Origin: Candidatus Omnitrophota bacterium
GTDB taxonomy: Bacteria > Omnitrophota > Gorgyraeia > 2-01-FULL-45-10
Direction of reading: 5' to 3'
DNA: 32,000 nt
Assembly: GCA_023818895.1 (NCBI GenBank)
Contig: JAMWCX010000001.1
Location: 329,789-361,788 of the forward strand
Below the pieces are notes generated by a model. The model was not told the DNA's origin, made no database searches, and was given only the letters and a program-made list of their open reading frames with translations. Both the position numbers and the translations under genes were made by a program. Below, in pieces: positions 1 through 31,799 of this stretch; the first letter of the stretch is position 1, and the number at the start of each line of letters is the position of its first letter.

Positions 1-1
1 C

Positions 2-3000
2 ACCGGGTATCGACGTGCCCCGCCATGCAGCCATGGCAAATCCCAGATCATCCAGGATCATCGTATCCGGGTCTGACCAGGCCGGATCGCGCGGATTTTG
101 TCTCATGGCGTCATCAACGACTATAACTCTTTTTATCAATCGGCCTTTATCCGCCAGAAGAACCTGTTTCGCCTGCGGATTTTCTTTTCGTAACTTTTTA
201 AGGAGAAAACTCCTGTAGCTCAAGAGCCGCTTATAGAATCCTGTCTCAGGCTCCGGCATATTACGGTTTGCGTATAACTGATACATATCTTCAATGTACT
301 GGCGCACAAAATGTTCCGGGTCGATACGGTCGGCCGACTGGTATCTGTTATGCGCCTTTACCCGATGGAAGTCCGACAGGGCGTCATAGGTAAGCACCCT
401 TTCATAATTATCGGCAAGAAAAGCCGCCAACCTCCCATTATCACTTATTATGCGTTCTATCGTATTCAGGTATTCTACTACTATACTGTCAACTATGGTC
501 GGCTCATAAAATTCATGATTCCGCTCGGCATAATAACCGTGTTTATTCTTTAAGACCTTTATAACTGGAACATCATCGCGAAGCTTTTCTAAAAGCTCTA
601 TTCGATCGATATCGTACCCTTCAAAAGTACGCGAACCTGCCTCCCAATCAGCTGAGGCATACGTAGTATCTTCTTCGTCCTTTTCCTCGCCGAAAGACGC
701 GAACCCATATCGGCTTTCCGCCCTCCCGCTTTCATTCGCCAGCATAACCACAAAATTAATCGCGAAATGAAACGCCGCCATTATCGCAAGGTATACTTGC
801 TGATCCATCATCGCAATCGGCAGAAGAGCCAATGAGGATACGGTAAGCAAAACCGGAGCGCGCATCCATTTTGATTCCTTGTCATAATGCAAAGCGATAA
901 ATACCAACCCCCAAATAAGGTATGACAATGTTATGCTGCCAAATAGGCCGGCCGTGAAATTAGGCAAAAGCCATCTGAAAATTGGTTCTTCAACAAGCGG
1001 CGCAATGAAAAGAGCCCTGATACGTTTACGCAAACCATGACTCATATTCGGTGTCAACAATTTAAGAAGTCTTGTTACCCCTGGACTGAAGGGCTTCGAA
1101 AATACGCTGTTTTTAGTCAGCAGACTCTTTAGCCAATCTAACCCCGCAACTATCTGCCCCCTTTCCAACATGTTTGTCAGAACGGCGGCATTATTTACAA
1201 TATGAAGCACATATCTGGCGGTATTCGACCGGTCGCCGTACACAGCCGAAAAAGAATTTATCCGTTCTCGATTGCTCAAGGCATTTCTTATGTCATTGTT
1301 GACTTTTACCGGTCCCTTTAAATATGCGGCAAGAGCAAATTTCAGTCGCTCAGAACGATCAGTTATCTTAGAGCTATAATTTTCAAATAACTTCAGCAGG
1401 TATGCACTGCCTGCCCCTACATTCTTCTCCGGCACAAAACGCTCGTCGAATTCCGCGACCCACTTCTTGTAATCCGCCGGATCATATCTAGAGCTATCAA
1501 GACCGTATTTCTTAACAAAATTCCTAGCGGCAAGCCGAAGGGCTTTCTCACCGTCACGGCCCGGCTTCCATTCGCGCTTTCCCTCCTTTATATTGTTGTA
1601 CCTGACTACCCTGACGGCGTGTTCCAGCTGGGCCTGCCAGCGCCTGTCTACGCTAAGCCCCATCTCTACAGCAGCAGGCCCGAGAAGCTGCATGAGTCCA
1701 ACTGCGCCGACTGAAGATACAGCGAAGGGATTGCCATTCGATTCGCGCCGTATGTGGGCAAGCACAAGAGCTATATCCGATATTTCAGGAGCGAAAGTCT
1801 TTTCATATCTTTCTTTTTGGGGTTCGACCTGTTCTCTTTCGGTCTTTTCAGGCAGGATTTCTGCCGGCCGATTTTGATCCGTAGCATTCTCTTTCTGCTC
1901 TATACCTACAGGTTCTATTTCATCATCAGGCGGGTTTATTATCCTCAGCGACATCTTCGGCAAAGTAAATGACATCATTACCAACCCTATTAGCGCCATA
2001 ATGTTAAGAATTTTATTGCAAATCTCTCCTTTAATCCCCATGGGAGGGAGCGCGCTTATCGCTTCGTATTTATCCATATCCCCCCGCTCCACTCCTCTCT
2101 GCACCTGTCTGCGATAATCATCGGAGAATAATAATTTTAATAGGATAACTCCGTCTAAACCTATCGGCAGTATCGCAAATGCGAGGTTCATGTATGCGTA
2201 AATACCCAAGAAAAAACCTACAGGGCTGTCAATATGCAGAAGCAATCTCGCCACAACTTCTGATATTATAAATAAGGCAAAATGCACCGGATAAGGTGCC
2301 GCTATTATCTTTGCGAGTTTTCTTGACACATCAGGAGTGCCCTTCAAAAATCCGAATTGAACACTCACAAGCGTCTGAGGATCATACCCGAGCTCTACGC
2401 CATCGGCACCGTTACTAATGGCCACGATCGCATGGGCTGTCTCATGCACCATAAAGGTAAGCAACAGGACGAGCGCCATCAGTCCCAAAAAAGGCAATAA
2501 GTCCACCTCCAGATCGCTTAAATAAACGAAAAATACCGGCAGGGCCGCGACTATGTTTAAGCGCGCGCGAAAATGTTTTGCGGATTTTCCCGGTGGGCCT
2601 GAGCGGGAAACTTTTTTTGTGACCACGAAGGGAAGTCCCTGCGATGCTTCAAAGGAGTCTCCAAGATATTTTACAACTTTGCTTCTCATTTCGCTGTCTA
2701 ATATCCCTATACCCGGTAATATGCAGCGGCCTCCTGGCTTAAGAACTCGCCTTATCTCTCTAAAGGTCCTTGACAGCTGTGTGTCAGTAAAATATTCGAA
2801 GACTCCCAACTCATAGACAACATCGAAGTAATCATCGGGATAAGGCAAGTGCTCGGTTATGTCCCCTTTTACCAGTTTTACGTCCTTGGCCTCCGTATTC
2901 TCCAAGGCAATATCTATGCCGAATGCTTCCACCTTTTTGCCGTAGACGGCCTTTAACCCTTCGATCGTGTTTCCGCGTTCACCGCAGCCGAGATCAAGGA

Positions 3001-6000
3001 CCCTAACCGTGCCAGAGACGCTGTTGATAGCATCGTTTATGGCACTCTTTATCGAAGAGGGCAGCTCGTCATATGCCCTGTTTGACATTCCTGGCTCCGA
3101 CGAATGAAAGAGCCTTGCAACAAACTCCTTTTCCGCCGCTGACACCACAAAGCGCTGCAGAAGATCCTTCATTTCTTTTGGTGTAATATTATTAGATATT
3201 ATGGAGGTTATAAGCCACCAGGACTTTGTCTTGATCAATTTGTCCCTCAGGCTGTCCGGCACGACAGGACCCTTATCCCCCACGCTCTTCGATCTGAGAT
3301 ATTCAAATATCTTGATATGCTCGTCAAATGGGATCGGGTCTTTATCAGAATCGCGCCATACCTTCAGATAAAAGCCGAGATTCCATATCTCGAGCTCCTC
3401 CACCGTCATTCCTACCTTTCGGAGTATCCTGTCTATCTCCTCAGCATCTGGAACTCCGGTCTTCTCATGGTCATACGCTTCAGGCACATCATACACCAAT
3501 CCAGACTCTTGCGCCCTGCGAAGCGCGCCAGCCTGCTGTAAATCTGATATTTTGTTAGTCGAGGCGACATTTACAACAAAATCGAATGCGAACAATCCGA
3601 AGATGGCATAAAGAACCGCTTTTACCGATGATGATACAGCCGGATAGCTTAACAGCAGATTTGACACCCCTGGCATACCGGAAGCGATGAACAGCAATAT
3701 AGAAAAGGCCGCTATTCCCATTCCGAGCGGCGCTGCCAAAAGAACACGAAGCGGATTTTTGAAGTTTTCGCCTTCAGGTGCGCGATACGCGCCGCCTACG
3801 ATCCTGCCGCCCTCACGGATGATCTCGATCCTGCCCCTGAAGCCGTCCGCCAGCGCGTGTAAGAACTCGTGGGGATAAACCACTAGCATCGACAAGAAGT
3901 TGCCGATAAAGGGAATGCGTGATAAGTGGCGGGCGGTAAAGCTGTAAGCCTTTCCATGCATTGGAGGCTGCATATTATCCAGAAGATATCCGCTGAGCCA
4001 TTTTACGTCATCGATTCTGACAGGGTTTATGTTTTGGATGAATGGATCCCTGCTCAGGCCCAAGGCCGGCGCGTGATTCCCCCCGATTAACACGAGAAAT
4101 TTCTTAGCAGGGTATTTTCGCGTCAGCGCTTCAAGACGTTTCGCCGCAACCTCGTTACGCGCCTTAAGCATCTCCTCCCTGACAAGAACGGCCTTCTGGT
4201 GGAACCTCTTCAGTTCTTCCCTTGAGGCCGATATCCTGATCGCAGCTTTTAAGAGGATCTGCCGTACCTCATCCTCCGGAATACCATAAAGTATTTTCGC
4301 GGTCTGCACAAAAGGATTGAACATTAGCGGAAACGGCGGATCTCGGTCTGTCTTTGCGCCCCTGGCCAATAAGCCCTTAACGACGAGGCTCAGGTGGTCG
4401 TGCAATTGTGGAAAAAGGGATGCGGCCAAGATATCTTCCTTGGAAAGGCCTGTTCTTCTTATCAGTATCTCGAGAACCTCGACATCGCCCTGAAGAGGGA
4501 TTATATCTTCAACCGGTATATTGAGATCCCTGCTCAACTTATCGGCTATCGCCACATCTGCTAGCGAGATCGGCATGCCCGTCTTTCTTCGGTCGGGCAA
4601 AGACTCCGCAACAATTACCCAATCCTGCGGATTCCGAATTATTGACCTGCTTATAGCAAGGATCTCGTCGGCTGCCCTCGGCGAACCGTGCGTGCCCGCA
4701 ACAACCTCCATGGGGGTTCCATACAATGTTATGGAATAACGCTCCGCGCCCCCGCTGGTTATAGTCGACGGCATAGGGCCGAATCTAAGTTCAACCTGGC
4801 TTTTGTGTTCGGCAAGAGATTTGTAAGTTCTTTCAACGCGTATATACGGAACGACAAGGAACGCGGTTATTGCCGCCACCGCAAGAAGCACAGCCGATAT
4901 GATTATAGCCCTGAACGGCGCATGTCTTTCTTTCGCAGCCTGTTTTCCCTGCACAGGAGGCGCGCGCGGCCCTGCCGGCTGAATAACAAAACGCGCTTCA
5001 ATCTCGCCAAGGTACCGCTCGGGGAGGCCCAGTTCTTTTCGTATATCATCAAGAGTCAGACGGTCGCCCTTATTGGCAACAACAACGCGGACCTTCTTGG
5101 CGGCTGCCCGTCTCGCCTCTCTTTTTTCAAGCTTAGGTAGCCCTTCAAGCGCTCTGGCTATGTCCGGAATGGTGGTATCCCTATTAAGCGCCAGACGACC
5201 TGCCGACGACCGTCCCATTCCCTGACCTAGATGAAGCGCCATCGCAAGCCTTACACCGTCCTCCTCGCTTAAACCATACCTTTTAACGAGCGCATCCAGG
5301 TCAATATCTTCCAGAGGAGTTCCCGTGGCAAGCTGCCGACGAGCCTCACGGATTGCGGCGTCAAGACCTGTCGAAGATACCTTAGCATTTGACCTTCCTC
5401 TTGCCTTAACGACCTCGATCGGATCCAGGCCGCCCCTAAAGGATTCGTCGTTAACAAGCGCCTCTACCAGGCCGGCCATCCCTGGAATCTCCAGATCAGC
5501 CGCCTTCACATATTCATCTCTCTTCATGGTATTAAGTTTTTCTCTAAACCACTCTGTCATTCCTCGCTCGCGTATCAGAGGAATGTATTCGGGCATCCTA
5601 AGTTCGTTACGCAGCCTTTCCCATTGCGCTTTGTTTACACGGCGCGCAAGCTCTTTTACACGGTCCTCGTGAGCCTTAAGCTCATCCTCCATCTGCGGTA
5701 TATACTCATCCGACCCTTTTCTCGCATCGTTATGCCTCATCGCTAAATAAATTATCCGCTTCTCGATGACGGATAGTCTCCTCTTTGTATTTAAGAGGTG
5801 GTCGGCTATGGCCAATCTTACATCCTCGTCGCTTGCGTCCGGCCACACTTCTATCCACGAGCCATCCTCCGAAAAAATCACCCTGCATAAGCCGGGAATG
5901 TTCATAGGGGTTTCAATATAGCGGACAATCTTAGAATACTCCGCGTCAACCAGCTGTTGCAACCTCGTCAGGTCCATTAGCGCCGGCTTGTCCGACACCT

Positions 6001-9000
6001 GCTCAGCCGGAATAGATACAGCCTTTTTGCCGGAAATCAAGCGACGGGCCATATTGATTATCTTTGCCCAGAAGATGGATATCAAGATAAGAGGAAAAAC
6101 GTATTTCAGGGCAAACAAACGCAGGCCTTTGGGAGATAAAAAATATGGCTTTAAATCTTCGACGCGCTGCGCCTTTACATGCTCAAGCCTAAAGTCAGCT
6201 AAATTGGAAGAGCATCTTACCGCGCCCTCGTATGAGGCTATATTTTTCGCATTTACCGTCCTCACCTCATAGCCCAGACCTTCCCATATCTTACAGGCTC
6301 GGGCGTCCATTAAGTCGTAACTGTATACAGGCACCAAAGCGACCCGATCCCGCAGGATAACAGCATTGTTATAGGTAATAACCGCCCCTTTGCCAGCCAC
6401 AGTCAGGCCGTACCATGGAAGCGCTGTGACCTTCATTCCTATATCGGTAAGCTCTCTTACCGTCTCGTCCAGTTTCCCAAGAACGCTTGTAAGGCCGCTT
6501 AAATCAAAGCTATAGGCATCAAATCTATCGCAGAAATCTACCAGCGCCTTCTTGAGATCTTTATCGCTAATCTCGGTTTCAACTAAGTATCTTATGTTCG
6601 TCAGCGCAACTTCTATATTGGTAATATGGTTTTTAATGCTTTGTTGCTGTGCCACCGAAATAGAAAATGGCTCTCCTTGTCTTAATATCTCTACCGTTAT
6701 ATCTTTTTCTGTCATAAATTTATCGACATAATCCCGCAACTCATCATATGCAGAAATGTCCAATCTTGCCAAATCAACAGCGGCCTGTTCCAGAAAAGCC
6801 TCCAATCCCATCTTCGGCGAACCTACAAGCGCCACACCTTCCTCCAGAAGCGTGACTTGGGTATCTATATGCGATTTCTCTATGTATGACGGTAAAAGAT
6901 GCAGCTCAGCCTCAAAGAAATCAGTGGCGAAGCGTTTTATGGTCTCCAGAACATCCTCTTTCGTATCAGCTGTTGCCAGCTCCAGGTTTAACCATACGGT
7001 ATGCTCGCCTATGAACAGGTGTTTTTTACCGCCTATCTCAGATACCAACAGGTCGCCTCCGACTAAATCGAATGGCAATTCCACCAGCTTCGCCCCTATG
7101 GCAGCCGCCACTTCCGAAGCAACGGTATAACCGTCGCTTCGGCCATCTTTACCCAACGACTTCATGTGCTTTGAGACGAGCACAAGGCCGGCATCATCCG
7201 GCCCTTTAGCGTAAATAAAAGGATCTCTAATCCATATGGGTACGGCGGTGTATGTCAAATCAGGATACGAAGCGAATATGCTCTTGTGTATAGATATCGC
7301 CTTCACCTTAATGGGCTTCTCCTTCTTGACCTTTTTTATAAGATTCTTGAGATCATCCGAAAAAGACGAATCAAGGACCACGAGGACCTCTGTGTCATCA
7401 GGAAGAGATCTGAATAGCTCCATATAATAATCATCGTAAAGGCTGTCATATCCGATTATGATACCGTTTCCTTCCTGTTTATAGGAAGGCGGCAGGTTTA
7501 TACGCTGATAATTAACCGTATCATTTGGTAATGAAGACTCGCTAATGACGGCATCCGATTTTAATGCCACGTTGGTAATAACAGGCTGTGCTAGCGGCGC
7601 GGCGCTGAGAATGGGTGCTGTTCTGAGCAATGCCCCGATAATAGCCATGCTTATCAAATAGCCGGCGCCTCGCCTACCTCTCCGATTCTTGCTGTCCACG
7701 GGTAACTCTCCATGCCGCTGCGCTTTACTGGTAGACATATCAGATCCAGCCATGCCTGCCATCAAATTAGGGGGCGCGCTTATAGCTGCGGCCGCGAGGC
7801 CTAGACGATTTAAATTACTGGCTATAGCTAGCGCGGATAGGCCGCTCGACTGCGCCAGCTTTATGAATTCGGCGTAAGGATTGCCTGAGAGCAGTTTGAA
7901 ATATGGGCTCTCATATCCGGCGCCGTTTCTGAAATTCGGCAGGATGGATATGTAAGAGATATTGTTTTTCTTGAAGAGCTCGCAGAGGTTCTCGGTGTGA
8001 AAGCCTCCGGTGACCACAACAGCAACTTGAGGCCTGACGGCCTGACGATGCGAGGGCCCTTTACTAAATCTGATATTCTTTATGAAAGCTTCGTCGCGCT
8101 TCATGGAATATTCATAAAACTTAGCCATCTCTTCTCGATTACGGTCAAGACCCTCTATCTCGATACTGAGCCTTGCTTCTATGCCATGTTTCGGCGCTTC
8201 CCGTCTTATGAAGTCTATGTAATTTTTGGCGTTGAATGACTCCTCGTTTGCCTGGTAATACGCGTAGTCCGGGCGAGTCAATGTGGCGTTGAAAAGGTTC
8301 TTCATGAGGGCAAGATTCTTGGAAAGAAGGACAAGATCGCGCTGCGTATCATTTTCGCACAGCGACTCTTTCAGCCGCGACTCGAGATCTTCTATCTCCG
8401 CCATCGCTTTAAGATTGTCGACCGCCTCATAGCGCGATATATAGTTGATATAAGCGTAAAACTGCGAGAAATCCTTCGTCTGTATAGAGAGTGCCGCTGC
8501 CTTGGTCATCAGATATGAGTAAAAATCTTTCTGGGATATCCTATTGGCCCGTAAGGCAACTGTCTTGGCTACCAGCTCCTCTACTTCGCTTCGCGAAAGC
8601 GCATTCTGAAGAACATCGATCAACTGATCGCGCTCAATATTAGCCTTTTTGAAATCAATACCGGCCTCCTGCTCAAGCGACTGCTTCAAAAGACCCAGAT
8701 TTTTAAACGCCGCGATATCGACCGATCTTCTCTCTGCGAGCGTAATGAGATGCGAAATATAGTCTCTAAACGGAAGGCTGCCTGACTTGAATTGCGAATA
8801 GGCAACATCCAGATCGAGAAGCTCCTTAGAATATATCTTGAGTTTTAGGGCAGCGAGAACGCTGCTTAATGCCCTGAGGCCCGCGTTCACGCTCTCTTTT
8901 TCACGTAAAGAATTTTTGTAAACCTTAAGGTTATCGAGATAAAGCCGCGGCTCTTCTATCCCCCACAGCGTGATTCTGCCTGGATTATTAATGGCAAAAT

Positions 9001-9490
9001 ACTCAGCTCCGTTTAAAAGACCCTCTTTTACAAAATTATCCGCGGCCTTATGCCTTATCTCCGCATCTTGAATATTTGTGAACAATGAAATATCATAATC
9101 CGCCTCGCCCCCCTCAAGGTTAACTATGCTGGCGCCGTAAGCGGCGCTTAAATAGTCAATAATCTCAGCGATTTTTATCTGTGCGTTATAGTTACAATGA
9201 GCATCCTGAATGTGAATAATAGTCGGGGGCTGTGAGGCAAGAGCCGGTAGATGAGGCGCTGACCATGAACTTTTTATCGTCCCGAGATCGTGCGGTAGGT
9301 AAAATGATTTTATGTCAAATTCTTCCGACTCGGACAGCGGTGAAATAAAATCAGATTTTTCTGCCCATACAAGATCTGCGGGAAGGCATGTGCAGAGAAA
9401 TGCGATAAGGGTAATAAATGCTATTATCCTTATTGACAGCGTGAACCGGAATATTATATCCCTGCGGATATTTGAGCTCGCGTCTTTCAT
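2..9490 (-). CDS. Giant multidomain membrane protein. N-terminus complete, C-terminus beyond the window edge (at least 3163 codons in window). Absent from the supplied ORF track.
   Basis: ATG at 9488-9490 (minus) is preceded by an in-frame TAA 18 nt upstream. Manual translation of the reverse complement, in the frame whose codons have lowest coordinate = 2 mod 3, met no stop down to position 2. Every recognisable motif listed below lies in that same frame. Any in-frame stop would have produced a complete minus-strand ORF in the track, and none is listed. Confidence 0.9.
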   Translation of the reverse strand, partial: MKDASSNIRRDIIFRFTLSIRIIAFITLIAFLCTCLPADLVWAEKSDFISPLSESEEFDIKSFYLPHDLGTIKSSWSAPHLPALASQPPTIIHIQDAHCNYNAQIKIAEIIDYLSAAYGASIVNLEGGEADYDISLFTNIQDAEIRHKAADNFVKEGLLNGAEYFAINNPGRITLWGIEEPRLYLDNLKVYKNSLREKESVNAGLRALSSVLAALKLKIYSKELLDLDVAYSQFKSGSLPFRDYISHLITLAERRSVDIAAFKNLGLLKQSLEQEAGIDFKKANIERDQLIDVLQNALSRSEVEELVAKTVALRANRISQKDFYSYLMTKAAALSIQTKDFSQFYAYINYISRYEAVDNLKAMAEIEDLESRLKESLCENDTQRDLVLLSKNLALMKNLFNATLTRPDYAYYQANEESFNAKNYIDFIRREAPKHGIEARLSIEIEGLDRNREEMAKFYEYSMKRDEAFIKNIRFSKGPSHRQAVRPQVAVVVTGGFHTENLCELFKKNNISYISILPNFRNGAGYESPYFKLLSGNPYAEFIKLAQSSGLSALAIASNLNRLGLAAAAISAPPNLMAGMAGSDMSTSKAQRHGELPVDSKNRRGRRGAGYLISMAIIGALLRTAPILSAAPLAQPVITNVALKSDAVISESSLPNDTVNYQRINLPPSYKQEGNGIIIGYDSLYDDYYMELFRSLPDDTEVLVVLDSSFSDDLKNLIKKVKKEKPIKVKAISIHKSIFASYPDLTYTAVPIWIRDPFIYAKGPDDAGLVLVSKHMKSLGKDGRSDGYTVASEVAAAIGAKLVELPFDLVGGDLLVSEIGGKKHLFIGEHTVWLNLELATADTKEDVLETIKRFATDFFEAELHLLPSYIEKSHIDTQVTLLEEGVALVGSPKMGLEAFLEQAAVDLARLDISAYDELRDYVDKFMTEKDITVEILRQGEPFSISVAQQQSIKNHITNIEVALTNIRYLVETEISDKDLKKALVDFCDRFDAYSFDLSGLTSVLGKLDETVRELTDIGMKVTALPWYGLTVAGKGAVITYNNAVILRDRVALVPVYSYDLMDARACKIWEGLGYEVRTVNAKNIASYEGAVRCSSNLADFRLEHVKAQRVEDLKPYFLSPKGLRLFALKYVFPLILISIFWAKIINMARRLISGKKAVSIPAEQVSDKPALMDLTRLQQLVDAEYSKIVRYIETPMNIPGLCRVIFSEDGSWIEVWPDASDEDVRLAIADHLLNTKRRLSVIEKRIIYLAMRHNDARKGSDEYIPQMEDELKAHEDRVKELARRVNKAQWERLRNELRMPEYIPLIRERGMTEWFREKLNTMKRDEYVKAADLEIPGMAGLVEALVNDESFRGGLDPIEVVKARGRSNAKVSSTGLDAAIREARRQLATGTPLEDIDLDALVKRYGLSEEDGVRLAMALHLGQGMGRSSAGRLALNRDTTIPDIARALEGLPKLEKREARRAAAKKVRVVVANKGDRLTLDDIRKELGLPERYLGEIEARFVIQPAGPRAPPVQGKQAAKERHAPFRAIIISAVLLAVAAITAFLVVPYIRVERTYKSLAEHKSQVELRFGPMPSTITSGGAERYSITLYGTPMEVVAGTHGSPRAADEILAISRSIIRNPQDWVIVAESLPDRRKTGMPISLADVAIADKLSRDLNIPVEDIIPLQGDVEVLEILIRRTGLSKEDILAASLFPQLHDHLSLVVKGLLARGAKTDRDPPFPLMFNPFVQTAKILYGIPEDEVRQILLKAAIRISASREELKRFHQKAVLVREEMLKARNEVAAKRLEALTRKYPAKKFLVLIGGNHAPALGLSRDPFIQNINPVRIDDVKWLSGYLLDNMQPPMHGKAYSFTARHLSRIPFIGNFLSMLVVYPHEFLHALADGFRGRIEIIREGGRIVGGAYRAPEGENFKNPLRVLLAAPLGMGIAAFSILLFIASGMPGVSNLLLSYPAVSSSVKAVLYAIFGLFAFDFVVNVASTNKISDLQQAGALRRAQESGLVYDVPEAYDHEKTGVPDAEEIDRILRKVGMTVEELEIWNLGFYLKVWRDSDKDPIPFDEHIKIFEYLRSKSVGDKGPVVPDSLRDKLIKTKSWWLITSIISNNITPKEMKDLLQRFVVSAAEKEFVARLFHSSEPGMSNRAYDELPSSIKSAINDAINSVSGTVRVLDLGCGERGNTIEGLKAVYGKKVEAFGIDIALENTEAKDVKLVKGDITEHLPYPDDYFDVVYELGVFEYFTDTQLSRTFREIRRVLKPGGRCILPGIGILDSEMRSKVVKYLGDSFEASQGLPFVVTKKVSRSGPPGKSAKHFRARLNIVAALPVFFVYLSDLEVDLLPFLGLMALVLLLTFMVHETAHAIVAISNGADGVELGYDPQTLVSVQFGFLKGTPDVSRKLAKIIAAPYPVHFALFIISEVVARLLLHIDSPVGFFLGIYAYMNLAFAILPIGLDGVILLKLLFSDDYRRQVQRGVERGDMDKYEAISALPPMGIKGEICNKILNIMALIGLVMMSFTLPKMSLRIINPPDDEIEPVGIEQKENATDQNRPAEILPEKTEREQVEPQKERYEKTFAPEISDIALVLAHIRRESNGNPFAVSSVGAVGLMQLLGPAAVEMGLSVDRRWQAQLEHAVRVVRYNNIKEGKREWKPGRDGEKALRLAARNFVKKYGLDSSRYDPADYKKWVAEFDERFVPEKNVGAGSAYLLKLFENYSSKITDRSERLKFALAAYLKGPVKVNNDIRNALSNRERINSFSAVYGDRSNTARYVLHIVNNAAVLTNMLERGQIVAGLDWLKSLLTKNSVFSKPFSPGVTRLLKLLTPNMSHGLRKRIRALFIAPLVEEPIFRWLLPNFTAGLFGSITLSYLIWGLVFIALHYDKESKWMRAPVLLTVSSLALLPIAMMDQQVYLAIMAAFHFAINFVVMLANESGRAESRYGFASFGEEKDEEDTTYASADWEAGSRTFEGYDIDRIELLEKLRDDVPVIKVLKNKHGYYAERNHEFYEPTIVDSIVVEYLNTIERIISDNGRLAAFLADNYERVLTYDALSDFHRVKAHNRYQSADRIDPEHFVRQYIEDMYQLYANRNMPEPETGFYKRLLSYRSFLLKKLRKENPQAKQVLLADKGRLIKRVIVVDDAMRQNPRDPAWSDPDTMILDDLGFAMAAWRGTSIPG
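740..1010 (-). other. Giant protein aa ~2828-2915: CPBP/Abi (CAAX protease-like) intramembrane glutamic endopeptidase domain
   Basis: Motif 1 APLVEEPIFRWLL (EEPIFR 974-991), motif 2 FIALH (FxxxH), and motif 3 AAFHFAINF (HFAIN 755-769). All are embedded in hydrophobic segments. Confidence 0.75.
1185..1800 (-). other. Giant protein aa ~2565-2770: SLT (family 1) lytic transglycosylase domain
   Basis: IALVLAHIRRESNGNPFAVSSVGAVGLMQLL, with the catalytic-type Glu codon at 1742-1744 and GLMQ ending at 1688. Downstream is KFALAAYLKGPVKV (1301-1330), which matches the AYNxGxxxV motif. Confidence 0.85.
2090..2530 (-). other. Giant protein aa ~2320-2465: M50 (site-2 protease)-like intramembrane metalloprotease module
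   Basis: HExxH inside a hydrophobic helix: LMALVLLLTFMVHETAHAIVA (HETAH 2432-2446). A second family motif follows downstream: YMNLAFAILPIGLDGVILL (LPIGLDG 2150-2170). Compare NxxPxxxLDG in SpoIVFB/RseP-type enzymes. Confidence 0.7.
2690..3080 (-). other. Giant protein aa ~2140-2265: class I SAM-dependent methyltransferase domain (Methyltransf_11-like)
   Basis: Motif I VRVLDLGCGERG (2972-3001), post-I AFGIDIA, motif II YFDVVYELGVFEYF, and motif III REIRRVLKPGGRCIL (LKPGG 2729-2743). Confidence 0.85.
3560..3900 (-). other. Giant protein aa ~1865-1975: HExxH membrane module (M50B-like putative metalloprotease)
   Basis: VVYPHEFLHALADGFRGRIEIIREGG, with HEFLH at 3857-3871. It is followed by hydrophobic spans LRVLLAAPLGMGIAAFSILLFIASG and VKAVLYAIFGLFAFDFVVNV. 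The HExxHAL-x4-G-x-I pattern resembles Peptidase_M50B. Confidence 0.5.
4050..4770 (-). other. Giant protein aa ~1575-1810: Tiki/TraB/GumN-like module 2
   Basis: EVVAGTHGSPRAADEI (4679-4705), DWVIVAESLPD, and KKFLVLIGGNHAPALG (4058-4090). Compare TraB LVGTAHFS ... VMVELC ... VVGMGHVPGI. Confidence 0.5.
6200..7471 (-). other. Giant protein aa ~674-1096: guanidino-group-modifying (pentein) domain, agmatine deiminase / Porphyromonas-type peptidyl-arginine deiminase-like
   Basis: Colinear series matching the agmatine deiminase / PAD_porph motif order: PIWIRDPF (W-I-R-D 7223-7234), DLVGGDLLVSEIGGKKHLFIGE (V-G-G-D 7052-7063), SHIDTQVTLLEEG (H-I-D 6863-6871), ITYNNAVILRDRVALVPVY, and ASYEGAVRCSSN (Cys codon 6212-6214, at the position of the catalytic Cys in GGGxHCxTQ / GxRCMS). 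A helical insertion of about 130 aa follows the HID motif. Confidence 0.6.
7976..9238 (-). other. Giant protein aa ~85-505: Tiki/TraB/GumN/ChaN-superfamily-like module 1 with a long helical insertion
   Basis: TIIHIQDAHCNYNAQ (9191-9220), IVNLEGGE, and VAVVVTGGFHTENL (7985-8017). These resemble the paired GxxH and acidic-strand motifs of TraB/GumN proteins (hhGTxH ... VELD ... VGxGHhxG). Motif-level only. Confidence 0.4.
9362..9490 (-). other. Giant protein aa 1-43: N-terminal signal peptide or signal anchor
   Basis: Basic N-region (MKDASSNIRRD), then hydrophobic IIFRFTLSIRIIAFITLIAFLCTCL, then PADLVWA/EK, which resembles an AxA-type cleavage site. Confidence 0.6.
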
Positions 9491-9552
9491 CTCAAATATT
9501 ATCTTACTTTATATAAATCTAACACAATGCATAAAAAAATTTAAGTAACTAG

Positions 9553-9580
9553 ATTATATCATAATTAATTACTTAGTCAA
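9553..9580 (-). promoter_or_regulatory. Near-consensus sigma70-type promoter upstream of the giant gene
   Basis: Minus strand reads TTGACT (9575-9580), a 16-nt spacer, then TATAAT (9553-9558) with TG extension (TGATATAAT 9553-9561). It sits in a very AT-rich tract about 60 nt upstream of ATG 9490. Confidence 0.5.
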
Positions 9581-9862: not shown

Positions 9863-9948
9863 TGGTGGTGAGGGAAGGATTCGAACCTTCGAAGGCTTTC
9901 GCCGCCAGATTTACAGTCTGGTCCATTTGGCCACTCTGGTACCTCACC
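9863..9948 (-). tRNA. tRNA-Tyr (anticodon GTA), type II with long variable arm, CCA encoded
   Basis: Reverse complement is GGTGAGGTACCAGAGTGGCCAAATGGACCAGACTGTAAATCTGGCGGCGAAAGCCTTCGAAGGTTCGAATCCTTCCCTCACCACCA. Acceptor stem GGTGAGG/CCTCACC, anticodon loop CTGTAAA, T-loop GGTTCGAATCC. Very close to E. coli tRNA-Tyr. Confidence 0.95.
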
Positions 9949-10112: not shown

Positions 10113-10172
10113 AAATCGGCTTCGATTCCCTTGCTTGGGAAAATCGCTAACTGGAGCTAGCGGAGGGAATCG
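10113..10172. repeat. Copy 2 of the exact 60-bp direct repeat. Overlaps the genuine 3' end of tRNA-Thr (10152-10172).
   Basis: Identical 60-mer to 9975-10034. Within each copy, cgattccct and agggaatcg are inverted and could pair. Confidence 0.9.
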
Positions 10173-10227
10173 AACCCCCGACCTGAGGTTTACAAAACCC
10201 CTGCTCTGCCTGCTGAGCTACGCTAGC
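10152..10227 (-). tRNA. tRNA-Thr (anticodon TGT), CCA encoded
   Basis: Reverse complement is GCTAGCGTAGCTCAGCAGGCAGAGCAGGGGTTTTGTAAACCTCAGGTCGGGGGTTCGATTCCCTCCGCTAGCTCCA. Clean cloverleaf with anticodon loop TTTGTAA. Confidence 0.95.
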
Positions 10228-11078
10228 GTCTTTAATGCGTCCGGCAATTTATGTAAAAGATCAGTGGCAAGAAGGCTCAAAATCCCCTTCTCTTTCAGCG
10301 CAAGGTCACCGGCAAGACCGTGGAAATATGCTCCCAATACCGCTGCGACGAAAGGTTCTGTCCCCTGCCCTATAAAACTCGCGATCATTCCCGTCAATAT
10401 ATCGCCGGTCCCGCCTGTCGCCATTCCTTCATTGCCGGTCTCGTTAATATAGCAATCGCCCGCGGGACTCGCCACCACAGTGCCGTGTCCTTTTAAAACC
10501 AGGACGGTATTATACTCACTTGCGAACTTTAACGCAACATCTTTTCTGTTCTGCTGTATCTCTGATATGTCTTTGCCGCAAAGCCGCGACATCTCGCCAG
10601 GGTGCGGCGTCAATACAATAGGGGCCTTTGCTTGCTTAAGGATATCCGCATGGCCTGCCAGACAGTTTATACCGTCGGCGTCTATTACCATGGGCTTGTT
10701 TATCTTTCCCGTCAATATCCTGACCAGTTGCTGGGTCTCCTTGTTCTGCGATATTCCTGGCCCCAGCGCCACTGCATCGCATTTTTCGCAAAAGGCAAGT
10801 ATCTCCTTCTCCGCAAGAAGACTGATTGACATGTCCTTTGTCTCGAAAAAAGGCCTGACCATTACCTCGGTCAGCTTGCCGGCCATTATCGGGTAGAGAG
10901 TCCTGCCTATGGCCAGAGTGACGAGCCCGCTTCCGGAAAGCGCCGCCGCCTGGCTTGTAAGATAAGCCGCGCCGGTGTAGCCGGCTGATCCGGCAACGAC
11001 AAATAAATGCCCAAAATCTCCCTTATGGGCAGTGCGGTCTTTTTTCGGAAACTTGCTTATGGCTTCCTGTATAGTCAC
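10218..11078 (-). CDS. nnrD: ADP-dependent NAD(P)H-hydrate dehydratase (YjeF C-terminal / carbohydrate-kinase-like)
   Basis: KGDFGHLFVVAGSAGYTGAAYL, TPHPGEMSRL, and ATGGTGDILTG motifs. 286 aa. The stop overlaps the 5' end of tRNA-Thr by 10 nt. Confidence 0.85.
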   Translation of the reverse strand: MTIQEAISKFPKKDRTAHKGDFGHLFVVAGSAGYTGAAYLTSQAAALSGSGLVTLAIGRTLYPIMAGKLTEVMVRPFFETKDMSISLLAEKEILAFCEKCDAVALGPGISQNKETQQLVRILTGKINKPMVIDADGINCLAGHADILKQAKAPIVLTPHPGEMSRLCGKDISEIQQNRKDVALKFASEYNTVLVLKGHGTVVASPAGDCYINETGNEGMATGGTGDILTGMIASFIGQGTEPFVAAVLGAYFHGLAGDLALKEKGILSLLATDLLHKLPDALKTLA

Positions 11079-11464
11079 GCTCTTCCCTTTCTAAGCAATA
11101 TGACATTGGCTATCGCATATTCTTTGGAATGTGACATACTAACTATGACATCGCGTATCTTCTTCTTTTTTTTGACCTTAAGGGCATCGTTATGGAATTG
11201 GATGGTGGGCCTTCCCTCTCTATCATTCAAAACCTCTATATCCGTCCACTGGAGTGGGTGTTTTTGAGGCTCGCCGAATGCCTTGATAACAGCCTCCTTT
11301 GCCGCAAAACGGGCCGCGAAATGCTGATAGGAAAATCTTCGCGATTTCGAATAGTGTATTTCGCGAGTCGTGAATATTCGCGTAAGAAAACCCTCCCCCC
11401 ACCGCTCTATCGCGTCGCGCACCCTGTCGATCTCCACTATGTCCACGCCCGTACCTGATATCAT
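11075..11464 (-). CDS. acpS: Holo-[acyl-carrier-protein] synthase
   Basis: GTGVDIVEIDRV, FAARFAAKEAVIKAFG, and REGRPTI. 129 aa. 4-nt overlaps with both neighbours. Confidence 0.9.
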   Translation of the reverse strand: MISGTGVDIVEIDRVRDAIERWGEGFLTRIFTTREIHYSKSRRFSYQHFAARFAAKEAVIKAFGEPQKHPLQWTDIEVLNDREGRPTIQFHNDALKVKKKKKIRDVIVSMSHSKEYAIANVILLRKGRA

Positions 11465-12171
11465 CCTATAAGCCCCTTCATCTGCCGAACCGCCTCTTTT
11501 ATGCCCACAAAAACCGCGCGTGATATTATAGAATGGCCTATATTAAGCTCGTGAAGACCTTCTATATGGGCAATATCCACAACGTTGATGTAATTAAGCC
11601 CATGGCCGGCATTTACCTCCATCCCTTTTGATCGGGCATATAAACATGCCTCCTTTAGGATCCTAAGTTCTCTTTTTTTTGCGCTCATTGAAGGCGCGTT
11701 AGCATACTCACCTGTATGAAGCTCTATTATGCGCGCGCCCGTCTTCAGAGACGCATCAATCTGCTTTTTAGATGGATTAATGAACAGACTGACTGCGATG
11801 CCACATGACTCCAGTTTGCAAACCACAGAACTTATTTTTCGAACATTCGAGACAACATCAAGACCGCCTTCAGTCGTGATTTCCATACGGCGCTCTGGCA
11901 CAAGCGTGGCCTGGTCCGGCCTTATATTACACGCGAAATCTACCACATCTTTTGCAATAGACATCTCCAGATTCAGTCTCTCAACAGCTCTTCTTAATGC
12001 CGCCACGTCGGCATCTTTTATATGGCGTCTGTCTTCTCTGAGATGGCAGACAATCGAATCAGCGCCTCCCGCGATACATTCTTTAGCAGCGTCTATAGGG
12101 TTTGGCTCGTATGTCTTTCTGGCCTCCCTCAACGTGGCAACATGGTCTATATTTACGCCTAACTTTAACAT
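11461..12171 (-). CDS. pdxJ: Pyridoxine 5'-phosphate synthase
   Basis: MLKLGVNIDHVATLREAR and HLREDRRHI motifs. I prefer ATG 12171, which gives the canonical PdxJ N-terminus. The track's longer version starts at a TTG at 12198. Confidence 0.9.
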   Translation of the reverse strand: MLKLGVNIDHVATLREARKTYEPNPIDAAKECIAGGADSIVCHLREDRRHIKDADVAALRRAVERLNLEMSIAKDVVDFACNIRPDQATLVPERRMEITTEGGLDVVSNVRKISSVVCKLESCGIAVSLFINPSKKQIDASLKTGARIIELHTGEYANAPSMSAKKRELRILKEACLYARSKGMEVNAGHGLNYINVVDIAHIEGLHELNIGHSIISRAVFVGIKEAVRQMKGLIG

Positions 12172-12178
12172 TGGTATC

Positions 12179-12622
12179 TCAGGGACCCGATTTTTCAACG
12201 GGGACAGTTACCTCAACCAGCGTCTCTTCAGTATAGACACCCGGCGCGATAGGGCTTAAAGGCACTGATTTGGTAAATGGCCTGTACGAACCGCGGACAT
12301 CTATCGGCATTGTGTGAGCAAACCTTATCTTGGAGAGAAGGTCCTTAGCGCCCACTACTATGCAGTATTCCGGAACAACGATCGCCTTCCTTGAGTCTAT
12401 CGTATAGCCATATCGTGGGGTTCCGACAAAAACGGGTTTTATCAATAACTTCTTGGCAACAATACCACCCGTTGGGAGGACCTTGTTCAGAAACTGCCTT
12501 TCCTCCTCGCTGCCTTTATTGAGCTCGCTGACTATGTAGAACCATAAGGCAAGCGCGAGTAAAAGTGCCGTCAACTTAAGACCCACGTTAACGGTAAAAA
12601 GATTTTTAAGGAATTTAAGCAT
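12179..12622 (-). CDS. YbbR-like domain protein, probable CdaA regulator (CdaR-type), N-terminal membrane anchor
   Basis: 147 aa. One TM helix (GLKLTALLLALALWFYIV) followed by a beta-rich domain. Sits immediately downstream of cdaA, as in cdaA-cdaR operons. The call rests on position and architecture. Confidence 0.55.
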   Translation of the reverse strand: MLKFLKNLFTVNVGLKLTALLLALALWFYIVSELNKGSEEERQFLNKVLPTGGIVAKKLLIKPVFVGTPRYGYTIDSRKAIVVPEYCIVVGAKDLLSKIRFAHTMPIDVRGSYRPFTKSVPLSPIAPGVYTEETLVEVTVPVEKSGP

Positions 12623-12628
12623 GTCTTA

Positions 12629-13420
12629 CTATCTGCCCCTTTTAGCAACCTTTAGAAATCCGGTCGGTAACTTAAATGGCTTATCTTCGGGTTTATAAAA
12701 GAGGTTTTTCAACATCTTTAGGACACCTTCTTCGTCTAAGCCTAGGTTTAGCTTGCCGCCGCTCGCTATGGAGATAGCGCCGGTCTCCTCGCTTACAATG
12801 AGGCATACAGCGTCCGTCTCTTCTGTTATCCCTACAGCCGCCCTATGGCGCATACCGAGTATCTTAGGTATCCCCCTCTCTTCCTGAGGAAGAGGCAGGA
12901 CGCAACCTGCCGCCACAAGCCTTCCCCGCTGTATTATCACGGCGCCGTCATGTAATGGCGATTGCGGCATAAAAATGGAAGTTATAAGGTAATTCGTTAC
13001 CTTGGCGTCTATCTGCGTGCCGCTTTCGATATAGCTCTTTAAGCCTACCTCCCGTTCGAGCACTATAAGAGCGCCTATCTTTCGCCGCGATAGGTTGCCC
13101 GCGGCCCCCGCAATCTCTTCCAGCACTTCACCGGATTCCTGATGAAGCCCAAGCTGGCCGAGTTGGGCAAGGCCCTTTCGTAGCTCCGGTTGGAATATTA
13201 CGATAAGCGCTATGACGGAGATAGGAAAAAGGCGGGCAAGAGACCAGCTTATTGCCTCAAGACCCAACTGTTGCGCTATAAGAAATATGACGCCAATTAT
13301 AACTATTCCTTTCAAAAGCTGTTCTGAGCGCGTCCCCTTCACAAAAAGAAGCACCATATATATAACATACCAAAGAATCAGGACCTCGACGACTATCTTC
13401 CAATAATAAAGCATTGTCAT
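12629..13420 (-). CDS. cdaA: Diadenylate cyclase (c-di-AMP synthase), membrane-anchored CdaA type
   Basis: Three N-terminal TM helices, then a DAC domain with PLHDGAVII and GMRHRAAVGITE motifs. Confidence 0.9.
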   Translation of the reverse strand: MTMLYYWKIVVEVLILWYVIYMVLLFVKGTRSEQLLKGIVIIGVIFLIAQQLGLEAISWSLARLFPISVIALIVIFQPELRKGLAQLGQLGLHQESGEVLEEIAGAAGNLSRRKIGALIVLEREVGLKSYIESGTQIDAKVTNYLITSIFMPQSPLHDGAVIIQRGRLVAAGCVLPLPQEERGIPKILGMRHRAAVGITEETDAVCLIVSEETGAISIASGGKLNLGLDEEGVLKMLKNLFYKPEDKPFKLPTGFLKVAKRGR

Positions 13421-13421
13421 C

Positions 13422-14282
13422 TTAATTTGCTTTTATTTTTATGACGGCATCCGCCATAAGCGATGCCTGACGAATTTCTTTGACATCGTGGACCCTTAAG
13501 ATACTCGCGCCCTTCAGCACCGCTATCACACACGTAGCTACCGTGCCGATTAGCCTGTTGGCTGGCTCTGGCACGTTAAGCACTTTACCTATAAAAGATT
13601 TTCGCGAGGTCCCTACGCATATCGGACGCCCGAGAATAGCAAGCTCTTCCAGTCTGTTAAGTATCTCAAGGTTATGCTCCAGAGATTTTCCAAAACCTAT
13701 GCCTGGATCAACTATGATAGAGTCTTCGGAAACGCCCGCCTGAATGGCGATCTTGACAGACATAGAAAGATCTCGCGCCACCTCCTTTACCACATCACCG
13801 TATTGCGGATCAGTCTGCATGTTCTTCGGTGTGCCCTTCATGTGCATAAGTATAAGAGCGGCGCCGTATCTCTTGGCAACAGAGGCCATCCTTTCATCAT
13901 ACCGTAAACCGGAGACATCGTTCACTATCCTGGCGCCGGCCTTAAGAGCCTCTTCGGCAACCACTGGCTTGCGCGTATCTACTGAAAGCACCGCATCCGT
14001 CTTCTTCGATAACTCGCGTATTATTGGGATAACGCGCGAGCATTCCTCATCAACGCTTACTTCTTCTGCTCCGGGCCGTGTCGACTCACCACCTATGTCC
14101 ACTATATCAGCGCCGTCTGATATCATATCGAGGGCGTGCCTTACGGCCTTCTCTTTGTCCAAAAATCGGCCGCCGTCTGAAAATGAATCGGGCGTCACAT
14201 TGAGGATGCCCATTATGTAGGTGCGCCTACTCAGTTCAAGCTTTATGCCTCTTACTGTCACATCAGGCCGACTTAGTCGCAT
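13422..14282 (-). CDS. folP: Dihydropteroate synthase
   Basis: IMGILNVTPDSFSDGG, DIGGESTRPG, and DPGIGFGK motifs. Confidence 0.9.
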   Translation of the reverse strand: MRLSRPDVTVRGIKLELSRRTYIMGILNVTPDSFSDGGRFLDKEKAVRHALDMISDGADIVDIGGESTRPGAEEVSVDEECSRVIPIIRELSKKTDAVLSVDTRKPVVAEEALKAGARIVNDVSGLRYDERMASVAKRYGAALILMHMKGTPKNMQTDPQYGDVVKEVARDLSMSVKIAIQAGVSEDSIIVDPGIGFGKSLEHNLEILNRLEELAILGRPICVGTSRKSFIGKVLNVPEPANRLIGTVATCVIAVLKGASILRVHDVKEIRQASLMADAVIKIKAN

Positions 14283-16140: not shown

Positions 16141-16187
16141 TTTCTATACTCCGCTATATATATGGCGTATTCTATCAAAATATGGAC

Positions 16188-16196
16188 ATTATATCA
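16188..16196 (-). promoter_or_regulatory. Extended -10 element TGATATAAT upstream of ftsH
   Basis: Located in the 59-nt tilS-ftsH intergenic gap, 47 nt upstream of ATG 16140. The same 9-mer occurs upstream of the giant gene and of tRNA-Met. No good -35 element. Confidence 0.4.
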
Positions 16197-16199
16197 AGG

Positions 16200-17198: not shown

Positions 17199-17200
17199 AG

Positions 17201-25208: not shown

Positions 25209-25216
25209 GATATCTC

Positions 25217-26059: not shown

Positions 26060-26069
26060 CTTTTCTCCT

Positions 26070-27787: not shown

Positions 27788-27788
27788 A

Positions 27789-28523: not shown

Positions 28524-28525
28524 CG

Positions 28526-31759: not shown

Positions 31760-31799
31760 ATAAGCCCCCTTCAATCATAGACAAAACCCTTTCTTAAAG

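Follow-up and report, generated by a model that had tools for sequence, protein, structure and literature searches.

A very long protein-coding gene of Candidatus Omnitrophota lies at the start of the whole 32,000-nucleotide stretch of contig JAMWCX010000001.1 that was analysed here (hereafter the window), where it is read on the minus strand from position 9490 down to position 2 and runs off the edge. As far as the sequence can show, this interval is part of one real gene and not an artefact. The reading that we consider probable as a whole is that of a single mosaic membrane gene product (hereafter the window protein), which would carry enzymatic modules as cargo and continue beyond the window to a C-terminal tail common to its family. 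A wider proposal, to be taken as tentative, is that the protein belongs to a phylum-wide family that counts 7,700 or more clusters at 50% identity and in which an ancestral protein of about 900 amino acids (aa) was turned into an insertion platform and variable cargo is held between a conserved N-terminal head and the conserved tail.

First of all, the reverse complement of 2-9490 comprises 9489 nt, that is 3163 codons, and the count of stops in its translation is 0, as the first-pass annotation of this DNA had predicted. Its claims about the start were likewise borne out: the ATG is found at 9490-9488, and an in-frame TAA is separated from it by 18 nt, which read S K I I F E and hold no ATG, GTG or TTG, the open frame reaching upstream to 9508. 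The second-longest open stretch in all frames of the 32-kb window has 631 codons, and by our own calculation (48% GC, about 5% stops among random codons) the chance of 3163 stop-free codons is about e^-160. The open reading frame (ORF) is missing from the ORF track because that track omits ORFs running off the end of the sequence, and the short plus-strand ORFs listed there in 1-9500 are antisense shadows of the giant gene. Moreover, a codon model was trained on 22 neighbouring minus-strand genes and scored in consecutive 200-codon blocks; it favours the frame of 2-9490 over both shifted frames in all 16 blocks, by 0.29 to 0.72 nats per codon. A frame-specific and host-like codon signal is thus present in every block, which makes the entire interval coding in a single frame.

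The start codon is backed by homologues that align from Met1. Among them the Omnitrophota protein P0001 aligns unbroken over residues 1-938 of the window protein, so that the junction between the head and the second module (M2) is seen in an independent single ORF, and the modules of residues 1370-2007 and 2292-2941 are also fused in the single ORFs of P0121 and P0001, both from Omnitrophota. It had been argued from the letters that this is one translation unit rather than several genes, and the argument holds on four counts, namely the lack of a stop, the uniform codon signal, the homologue-confirmed start and the fusion of the modules in independent Omnitrophota ORFs. The fourteen motif positions offered as anchors of the frame fared a little less evenly. 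Eleven of them stand at or within a few bases of motifs that were located independently, whereas two more (7985 and 4058) are 12-15 nt off, lying at that distance from GGFH (7997-8008) and GGNH (4073-4084). The other motifs are HIQDAHCN (9191-9214), WIRD (7223-7234), SHID (6863-6874), VRCSS (6206-6220), AGTHGS (4682-4699), HEFLH (3857-3871), LDLGCG (2981-2998), HETAH (2432-2446), N..LP..LDG (2150-2188), RRESN (1736-1750), EEPIFR (974-991) and HFAIN (755-769).

The protein begins with a hydrophobic helix that has a basic N-flank and is followed by VWA/E, at a place where the family consensus reads D-x-A-W-A. Behind it lies the head, in which Q95-D-A-H98-C99-N100, N124-L-E126-G-G128, R465-D466 and G495-G-F-H498 are invariant across a 22-sequence alignment. 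All 120 homologues listed (1742-5352 aa) match aa ~1-565 of the window protein at their own N-terminus, with 42-56% identity. When aa 1-600 were searched with HMMER against 1.84 billion cluster representatives, 7753 proteins were retrieved at E<=1e-3 and 2430 at E<=1e-30, and in the best 150 of these matches, proteins of 630-7683 aa, the head is again N-terminal. Head-encoding loci number 448 in the GTDB species-representative genomes. A set of 78 loci was kept, to which at least 19 genomes give two or three loci each, and all 78 are titled Omnitrophota or, for some third-party-annotation (TPA) metagenome-assembled genomes (MAGs), 'uncultured Planctomycetia'.

The AlphaFold2 (AF2) model of the head has a mean predicted local distance difference test score (pLDDT) of 76.8, mostly 80-95 over aa 60-520, and consists of an all-helical insert of about 290 aa that splits a small alpha/beta core, the invariant His, Glu and His being placed where the core strands end. 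Members of the Tiki/TraB/ChaN/erythromycin-esterase superfamily share a fold with two GxxH motifs plus a Glu. The modelled head resembles them in its alpha/beta core, in the His and Glu residues at strand ends (H98, E126, H498) and in the large helical split; it differs in having Q-D-A-H-C-N instead of G-x-x-H, with an invariant Cys adjoining the His. Weak Foldseek matches of the head include EreC (6xcs, 6xcq) and BcR135 (3b55, 2rad), at E 0.25-0.6 and TM-scores of no more than 0.23, beside generic helical bundles, so that a Tiki/Ere-like hydrolase identity suggested by the model is to be taken as a lead and not as a result. No Pfam family covers the head; among 22 members one marginal match was returned (Cofac_haem_bdg of the Tiki superfamily, E 0.028). 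As a separate observation, the helical insert (aa 181-472) gives non-significant Foldseek matches to the ClyA-type alpha-pore-forming toxins MakE, AhlB/C, NheA and YaxA as well as to generic coiled coils, and the ClyA-type matches probably reflect merely long helical bundles.

Downstream of the head the chain is tiled with unrelated modules (Table 1). Three domains are recognised when Pfam and NCBIfam are run on the whole chain. The methyltransferase is matched by Methyltransf_11 (PF08241) with 60.9 bits against a cut-off of 21.2 (E 2e-16) and has motif I as LDLGCG at 2165-2170. The SLT domain (PF01464; 57.2 bits, cut-off 21.3, E 1.5e-15) is found in two stretches split by an insert of about 75 aa; the catalytic E2583 lies in RRESN, followed by GLMQ at 2598-2601 and then AAYLKG, and the ES and GLMQ motifs are aligned to MltC and EmtA of the PDB. 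The CPBP/Rce1-like module (PF02517, E 7e-7) reaches 29.8 bits when the module is scanned by itself and 22.1 bits within the full chain, the cut-off being 22.4; its motifs are E2834-E-xxx-R2839, F2864xxxH2868 and H2908xxxN2912, and it is 64% identical to the module of P0121.

Two further assignments are less firm. M2 bears pentein motifs, W753-I-R-D756, G811-G-D, H874-I-D876 and C1093, all four of which are conserved in the module of P0001, and it would be a guanidino-modifying enzyme; Pfam PAD_porph (PF04371) gives it 20.5 bits (E 3e-4) against a cut-off of 25 bits, covering the C-terminal ~85 positions. The AF2 model of M2, built from a 2-sequence alignment, is unusable (pLDDT 38.8), and the word-indexed search gave no homologue for aa 631-1126, the module of P0001 being the sole homologous module found. 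The second is a candidate intramembrane metalloprotease of S2P/M50 type, with the motifs H2349-E-T-A-H2353 and N2435..LP..LDG2447 (NLAFAILPIGLDG, 2435-2447); M50B gives 15.7 bits (E 0.013) and M50 12.5 bits (E 0.089), where the cut-offs are 26 and 27. This block is common to P0121, P0002, P0067, P0001 and P0073.

The remaining modules are known from the family itself. The C-terminal ~150 aa of module M3 are part of a cassette common to P0001, P0121 and P0125, and module M4 conserves G-x-H (1600-1602), E-x-x-P and G-G-N-H (1803-1806). It was considered whether M4, with its GTH...GGNH pattern, is a second head fold or a TraB-like domain, and this was set aside as unsupported (hhalign probability 0.2%, no Pfam match). 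The putative membrane-embedded zinc peptidase with the HExxH motif has helices at 1917-1935 and 1958-1976, and P0121 has two copies of its cassette, P0001 one. For M3, M4 and aa 1977-2134 no recognisable relatives were found beyond a few family members. The linker between the head and helix 2 ends with KNRRGRRG, so that five K/R residues stand in the N-flank of the helix, and the arrangement resembles an internal RR-type signal sequence. In this connection, aa 601-630 (7601-7690, minus strand), KNRRGRRGAGYLISMAIIGALLRTAPILSAAPLA, have the appearance of a twin-arginine or Sec signal sequence that follows the head, and the family member P0011 carries the NCBI annotation 'twin-arginine translocation signal domain-containing'.

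Table 1. Coordinates of the giant gene, of the modules of its product, of segments shared with P0121 and of the elements upstream. Residues are numbered from Met1; KD, Kyte-Doolittle hydropathy.
Feature	Residues (aa)	Window positions	Strand	Basis or remark
5′ part (3163 codons) of a protein-coding gene, 3′ end beyond window position 1		2..9490	-	0 stops, codon signal, homologues from residue 1
N-terminal hydrophobic helix, predicted signal peptide or signal anchor	18-36	9383..9439	-	KD 2.38; AF2 helix 4-35
Head module	37-565	7796..9382	-	Conserved N-terminally in family; AF2 model
Linker and hydrophobic helix 2	566-611 and 612-630	7601..7795	-	pLDDT <50 over aa 523-600; KD 1.76
M2, putative pentein/guanidino-modifying module (PPAD- or agmatine-deiminase-like)	631-1126	6113..7600	-	Motifs; sub-threshold Pfam
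Hydrophobic helix 3	1127-1148	6047..6112	-	KD 1.84
Module M3	1149-1528	4907..6046	-	No Pfam or PDB match; phmmer matches to three family members
Hydrophobic helix 4	1529-1547	4850..4906	-	KD 2.97, strongest of the protein
Module M4	1548-1860	3911..4849	-	40-52% identical to modules of P0121, P0125 and P0001; no Pfam match
HExxH membrane module, putative membrane-embedded zinc peptidase	1861-1976	3563..3910	-	H1874-E-F-L-H1878 beside 2-3 helices
Class I S-adenosylmethionine-dependent methyltransferase	2135-2270	2681..3088	-	Pfam and NCBIfam
Candidate S2P/M50-like intramembrane metalloprotease block	2309-2508	1967..2566	-	5 hydrophobic helices; two M50 motifs
SLT-type lytic transglycosylase	~2570-2740	1271..1783	-	Pfam SLT; PDB MltC, EmtA
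CPBP/Rce1-like intramembrane protease	2824-2917	740..1021	-	Pfam and motifs
Last 246 codons in the window	2918-3163	2..739	-	No homologue found
Segment aligned to P0121 3204-3691	1370-1839
Segment aligned to P0121 1168-1328 and 2864-3024 (duplicated)	1847-2007
Segment aligned to P0121 3697-4206	2292-2793
Segment aligned to P0121 4847-4989	2799-2941
Sigma-70-like promoter candidate TTGACT-16-(TG)TATAAT		9553..9580	-	11/12 consensus matches, extended -10 TG; consensus match alone
tRNA-Tyr(gta)		9863-9948	-	Between carbohydrate-kinase gene and giant gene
tRNA-Thr(tgt)		10152-10227	-	Between carbohydrate-kinase gene and giant gene

By Kyte-Doolittle hydropathy, a crude method, 13-15 strongly hydrophobic 19-mers are spread along the chain, with segments starting at aa 18, 612, 1127, 1529, 1917, 1958, 2309/2331, 2402, 2436, 2490, 2849, 2878 and 2899. 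The positive-inside counts are coherent from helix 5 onward. In the mechanism that is proposed, the chain would be inserted co-translationally and would stay in the cytoplasmic membrane, its soluble modules alternating between the two membrane faces. The methyltransferase would then be cytoplasmic and the SLT domain periplasmic, and the five helices predicted between the two, an odd number, fit this assignment. The product would be a membrane-tethered battery of envelope-active enzymes for peptidoglycan cleavage, guanidino modification of proteins or peptides and intramembrane proteolysis. The enzyme set itself (SLT, a PPAD/agmatine-deiminase-like module and three types of membrane-embedded protease) suggests that it acts on a cell envelope, and the target may be the envelope of the bacterium itself or of a larger host or prey cell to which the ultra-small Omnitrophota are proposed to attach.

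The comparison with relatives, which measure 0.9-7.7 thousand amino acids (kaa), concerns the ends of the protein as much as its middle. P0121 (5935 aa) is the closest relative, with 56% identity in the head, and holds cassettes of the window protein in rearranged form; P0001 carries them in yet another order. In a different Omnitrophota MAG, locus L078 has the order FtsH-FolP-DAC-x-PdxJ-ACPS-CarbK-tRNA-Thr-tRNA-Tyr-head gene, the same as in the window, and the neighbouring genes are 55-74% identical. The head gene of L078 starts at the same place and is longer than 2100 aa, and its product P0104, with SpoIIE-type cargo, has the head alone in common with the window protein. P0005 and P0031 are syntenic as well, both being encoded after RsmE-MiaB-FabG-ACP-FabF-ACAD-ETF; the head and the C-terminal ~220 aa are common to the two, and the middle is different.

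The tail, of about 240 aa, was detected in 141 of 201 sampled members by jackhmmer (E<1e-5) and in 156 of the 201 by profile (E<1e-3). Where present it always stands at the very C-terminal end; it ends 0-1 residues from the C-terminus in 90% of the tail-bearing members and has the motif ...LRIKPID..I..WK..QDEVL.AL, while the members without it are mostly 'partial' by annotation or truncated by their contig. Minimal members of 887-966 aa consist of head and tail with nothing between. At the loci examined, complete family genes encode about 820 to 3680 aa, while many genes are longer than 3900 aa. In members of at least 1500 aa, a median of 57% of the post-head residues match another sampled member, which indicates a cassette pool that is shared yet sparsely sampled; HEAT, TPR, HATPase_c, radical SAM, PPDK_N, GNAT and kinase domains belong to this pool. 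It is proposed that the family diversifies by insertion, deletion and swapping of cargo cassettes between head and tail. In the wider proposal, cassettes of 0 to more than 6000 aa would be inserted, shuffled and replaced between the conserved ends, even at syntenic loci, and head and tail might jointly act as a dedicated device that targets, assembles or delivers what lies between them.

Several side observations concern the same proteins. The extreme C-terminus ...W-K-x-x-Q-D-E-V-L-x-A-L-COOH is strongly conserved, nearly all complete members ending with [AS]-[LA], and might be a sorting or docking signal. Intein_splicing (PF14890) occurs inside the head-family proteins P0007 and P0061, and beside P0031 there is an SMC gene (L081, 14825-20083) with an intein that has a LAGLIDADG endonuclease. 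DUF7790 (PF25046) is present in the cargo of P0001 (aa 3246-3332) and of P0008 (aa 1434-1685, just upstream of the tail) and absent from the window protein.

It had been predicted that the end of the gene lies outside the window, and two results agree with this: the frame is open at the edge, and the family tail profile detects no tail in aa 1-3163. With neither tail nor stop, the gene most likely continues for at least ~230 aa past the window, where it should end with the family tail, and an extension of several hundred more aa would be expected if the gene resembles P0121. The alternative that the window ends inside the tail is not supported. The general profile gives 3.7 bits at aa 3106-3156, a score matched by 23 of 2000 shuffles; other stretches of the protein, taken as controls, reach 2.9 bits, the subfamily profile gives -1.3 bits and the pairwise match to P0121 falls in a different register. 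Nor did database searches extend the gene: the 60-mer of window positions 1-60 has no exact match in the genome or metagenome contig collections, scanning metagenome contigs for the protein pattern of aa 2800-3163 gave no relative, the last 246 aa (2918-3163) have no homologue in Pfam or in the word-indexed search, and the whole-protein search returned no self or near-identical match.

A number of points weigh against the reading of a membrane-threaded enzyme mosaic that ends in the family tail. About half of the 3163 aa is unannotated; the annotated half consists mostly of envelope- or membrane-active enzymes. The pentein and M50 modules are candidates, drawn from motifs together with Pfam scores below threshold. 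Neither end of the frame has a known structural relative: for the head, Foldseek gave no significant match in the PDB (best E 0.13) and a PDB profile search was empty, and for the tail no Pfam or PDB relative was found. The 3′ end, where the tail is expected, lies outside the sequence examined. Over the first 1900 aa, hydropathy and the positive-inside rule taken together give contradictory results; helix 1 with VWA/E predicts an exported head, whereas helix 2, with its RR-rich flank, points the other way, and the conserved stretch behind the head is not hydrophobic enough for a transmembrane call. In addition, many family members have few or no strong post-head helices and yet carry ATP-dependent cargo, and threading through the membrane is therefore no family-wide rule. 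In P0119, P0112, P0074 and P0085, for example, protein kinase, HATPase_c and PPDK_N cargo is found with no strong helix after the N-terminal one. Since no strong helix follows in those proteins, head and cargo would share one side of the membrane, which is odd if the N-terminal helix exports. The conflicting topology and such ATP-dependent cargo leave some weight to two of the rival explanations given below, the polyprotein and the delivery platform.

Long, transmembrane-rich, multi-enzyme ORFs have been reported from Omnitrophota. Such ORFs are described by Seymour et al. 2023 (PMC10066038) and mentioned in passing in the Lipocone paper (10.1101/2025.01.14.632903). 'Archaeovorin'-type Omnitrophota giants are treated by West-Roberts et al. 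2023 (10.1101/2023.11.21.568195) with a threshold of more than 30,000 aa, and class 1 'multi-enzyme metabolic clusters' by Nielsen & Lui 2026 (10.64898/2026.06.07.730766) with a threshold of at least 10,000 aa. These works state that long Omnitrophota proteins include SLT and methyltransferase domains, that the giants have N-terminal regions without identifiable domains and poorly conserved sequences, and that a divergent SecA DEAD-like domain is found in 'most' full-length giants.

The window gene resembles these giants in its phylum, in the tiling of one ORF with many unrelated enzyme domains (methyltransferase, peptidases and SLT among them), in an N-terminal region without database annotation and in scattered transmembrane helices, about 1 per 240 aa here and about 1 per 370 aa in one published 122-kaa protein. 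The cargo pool of the head family also overlaps the published domain lists. It differs in size, having at least 3163 aa with relatives of 0.9-7.7 kaa, and therefore probably lies below both the 10,000-aa and the 30,000-aa thresholds; the gene is large for its family and probably far below the literature giants of 10-147 kaa. It differs also in lacking a SecA-DEAD, C39 or S8 domain in the available 3163 aa. The window gene thus belongs to a kind known for Omnitrophota, multi-enzyme, transmembrane-rich and non-repetitive. The statement of the first-pass annotation that genes of this size are rare in bacteria holds for bacteria generally, but not for Omnitrophota, from which such long membrane proteins with many enzymes are published and in which they are common. 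A conserved head/tail frame is not mentioned in the passages covered of the openly available full texts, and the head-cargo-tail frame may be a new description.

Four other explanations of the gene have to be weighed. The one that survives best, though it is unlikely, is that of a self-processing polyprotein, in which one chain is inserted into the membrane and cut by its own proteases (HExxH, S2P/M50-like, CPBP and possibly the head), so that one ORF would do the work of an operon. In its favour, the chain combines three protease-type modules that are embedded in the membrane and have their catalytic motifs intact, other family members also repeatedly carry membrane proteases (M50, M48) as cargo, and the cassette boundaries adjoin hydrophobic helices. 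West-Roberts et al. (10.1101/2023.11.21.568195) made the same proposal for larger Omnitrophota giants and their C39 and S8 domains. However, the usual substrates of S2P and CPBP enzymes are other proteins, a protease domain is missing altogether from many family members, and the chain is not known to have cleavage sites or processed products. A comparison with stand-alone enzymes (MltC/EmtA, M50, CPBP and Porphyromonas-type peptidylarginine (PPAD) or agmatine deiminases) bears on the same modules: the window protein has the catalytic signatures of every one of these families, whereas the enzymes differ in being all fused in one chain, in the ~75-aa insert of the SLT domain and in the M50 and PAD_porph scores below the Pfam cut-offs.

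A delivery platform for effectors is quite unlikely. Here head and tail would be the export apparatus and the variable middle a payload for a host or prey cell, after the logic of MARTX or polymorphic toxins. MARTX toxins have N- and C-terminal arms of glycine-rich repeats, a cysteine protease domain and type I secretion. The likeness to MARTX and polymorphic toxins lies in conserved termini around an exchangeable, hypervariable enzymatic centre, with cargo swapped at conserved, orthologous loci and cassettes shuffled among paralogues; it extends to a similar size (3-5 kaa) and to embedded proteases that could process the chain. The conserved C-terminal ...VL.AL-COOH is like a sorting signal, and for helix-poor members with kinase, HATPase and PEP-utilising cargo the positive-inside rule puts ATP-requiring domains outside the producer cytoplasm. 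Moreover, a predatory or episymbiotic lifestyle has been proposed for Omnitrophota (PMC10066038; 10.1101/2023.11.21.568195; 10.1101/2025.01.14.632903). On the other hand, about 13 strong helices with polytopic protease blocks argue for permanent membrane residence, a difference from MARTX and polymorphic toxins that is accompanied by the lack of an evident immunity gene. The available 3163 aa hold no RTX or other glycine-rich repeats, cysteine protease domain or secretion-system domain, no secretion genes, type I or otherwise, were seen within 22 kb upstream, and neither head nor tail has a Pfam or significant PDB relative that would speak for export.

That an assembly chimera, or sequencing errors that removed stops, fused ordinary genes is highly improbable. 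A fragmentary MAG of the same population breaks at 10740, and neither the protein nor the contig collections yielded any piece of the giant gene, which is therefore known from one assembly. Against this stand the negligible chance of such an open run and the uniform, host-like codon signal; the head-M2 junction is supported by P0001 and the other junctions by P0121 and P0001, the syntenic L078 also begins a long head gene at the same place, and hundreds of relatives measure 2-7.7 kaa. Finally, a repeat-type giant surface adhesin built of Ig-like, cadherin or dockerin arrays is hardly credible, for although some Omnitrophota giants are adhesin-like, with dockerin, TSP3 or discoidin domains (10.64898/2026.06.07.730766; 10.1101/2023.11.21.568195; PMC10066038), no tandem DNA repeats were found in the gene, no internal protein repeats by self-BLAST even at E<=10 and no adhesin Pfam domains, which already contradicts it. 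The earlier remark that the gene is packed with enzymatic domains rather than adhesin or Ig-like repeats is thus sustained for methyltransferase, SLT, CPBP, M50-like and pentein-like modules, about half of the length having no recognisable function.

As regards its genomic setting, the gene is encoded in an Omnitrophota genome: the whole-protein search gave 278 matches at E<=1e-10, in which every named match is Candidatus Omnitrophota/Omnitrophica, and the neighbouring holo-ACP synthase is identical to MCM8761112.1/MCM8790411.1 of 'Candidatus Omnitrophota bacterium', a protein encoded on two contigs, the longer of 732,676 bp. The 22 kb upstream of the giant gene are ordinary chromosome, all on the same strand, with acetyl-CoA-pathway and corrinoid genes, PanB, PanE, ApbE, MnmA, a NUDIX protein, TilS, FtsH, FolP, diadenylate cyclase, PdxJ, ACPS and a carbohydrate kinase, followed by tRNA-Thr and tRNA-Tyr. 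No secretion or pilus genes were found in the window, and an Rfam scan of the window gave three tRNAs and nothing else. The promoter candidate lies in an AT-rich spacer about 63 nt upstream of the ATG, and no obvious Shine-Dalgarno sequence precedes the start codon.

The tRNA pair also precedes the head gene at L078 (9514-9589, 9656-9741) in the same order, and in both genomes the 3′ end of the kinase coding sequence overlaps tRNA-Thr by about 7-10 nt. The acetyl-CoA (Wood-Ljungdahl) and corrinoid cluster at 23469-31774 (minus strand) comprises three CdhD-family ORFs (one with an Fe-S domain), RACo, two pterin-binding methyltransferase-like ORFs and a CooC/MinD-type ATPase, with PanB and PanE interleaved. 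MAG contig JAMWDH010000057.1 (GCA_023818765.1, 6.8 kb) is 99.97% identical to window positions 10740-17545 and ends at 10740, so the short-read assembly of GCA_023818765.1, which is of the same population, apparently breaks off a short way upstream of the tRNA pair and the giant gene.

As a single locus, the gene is one more long mosaic gene in a phylum already known for such genes. It is a compact and readable example of enzymes threaded, as we read it, through the membrane with their catalytic motifs intact (SLT, CPBP, S2P-like, pentein-like and methyltransferase), and expression module by module could probe a role in envelope attack or remodelling. The head and the tail, neither of which is in Pfam or the PDB, frame variable cargo in thousands of Omnitrophota proteins and thereby offer a handle for classifying such genes. 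In addition, the tail can serve as a completeness marker, a copy without it being incomplete, and as a way to ask how such genes grow. The swapped cargo at syntenic loci shows rapid turnover at fixed sites, a pattern typical of genes of inter-organism conflict. If the tentative proposal is true, the head-cargo-tail platform would be a concrete route by which Omnitrophota build and diversify very long genes.

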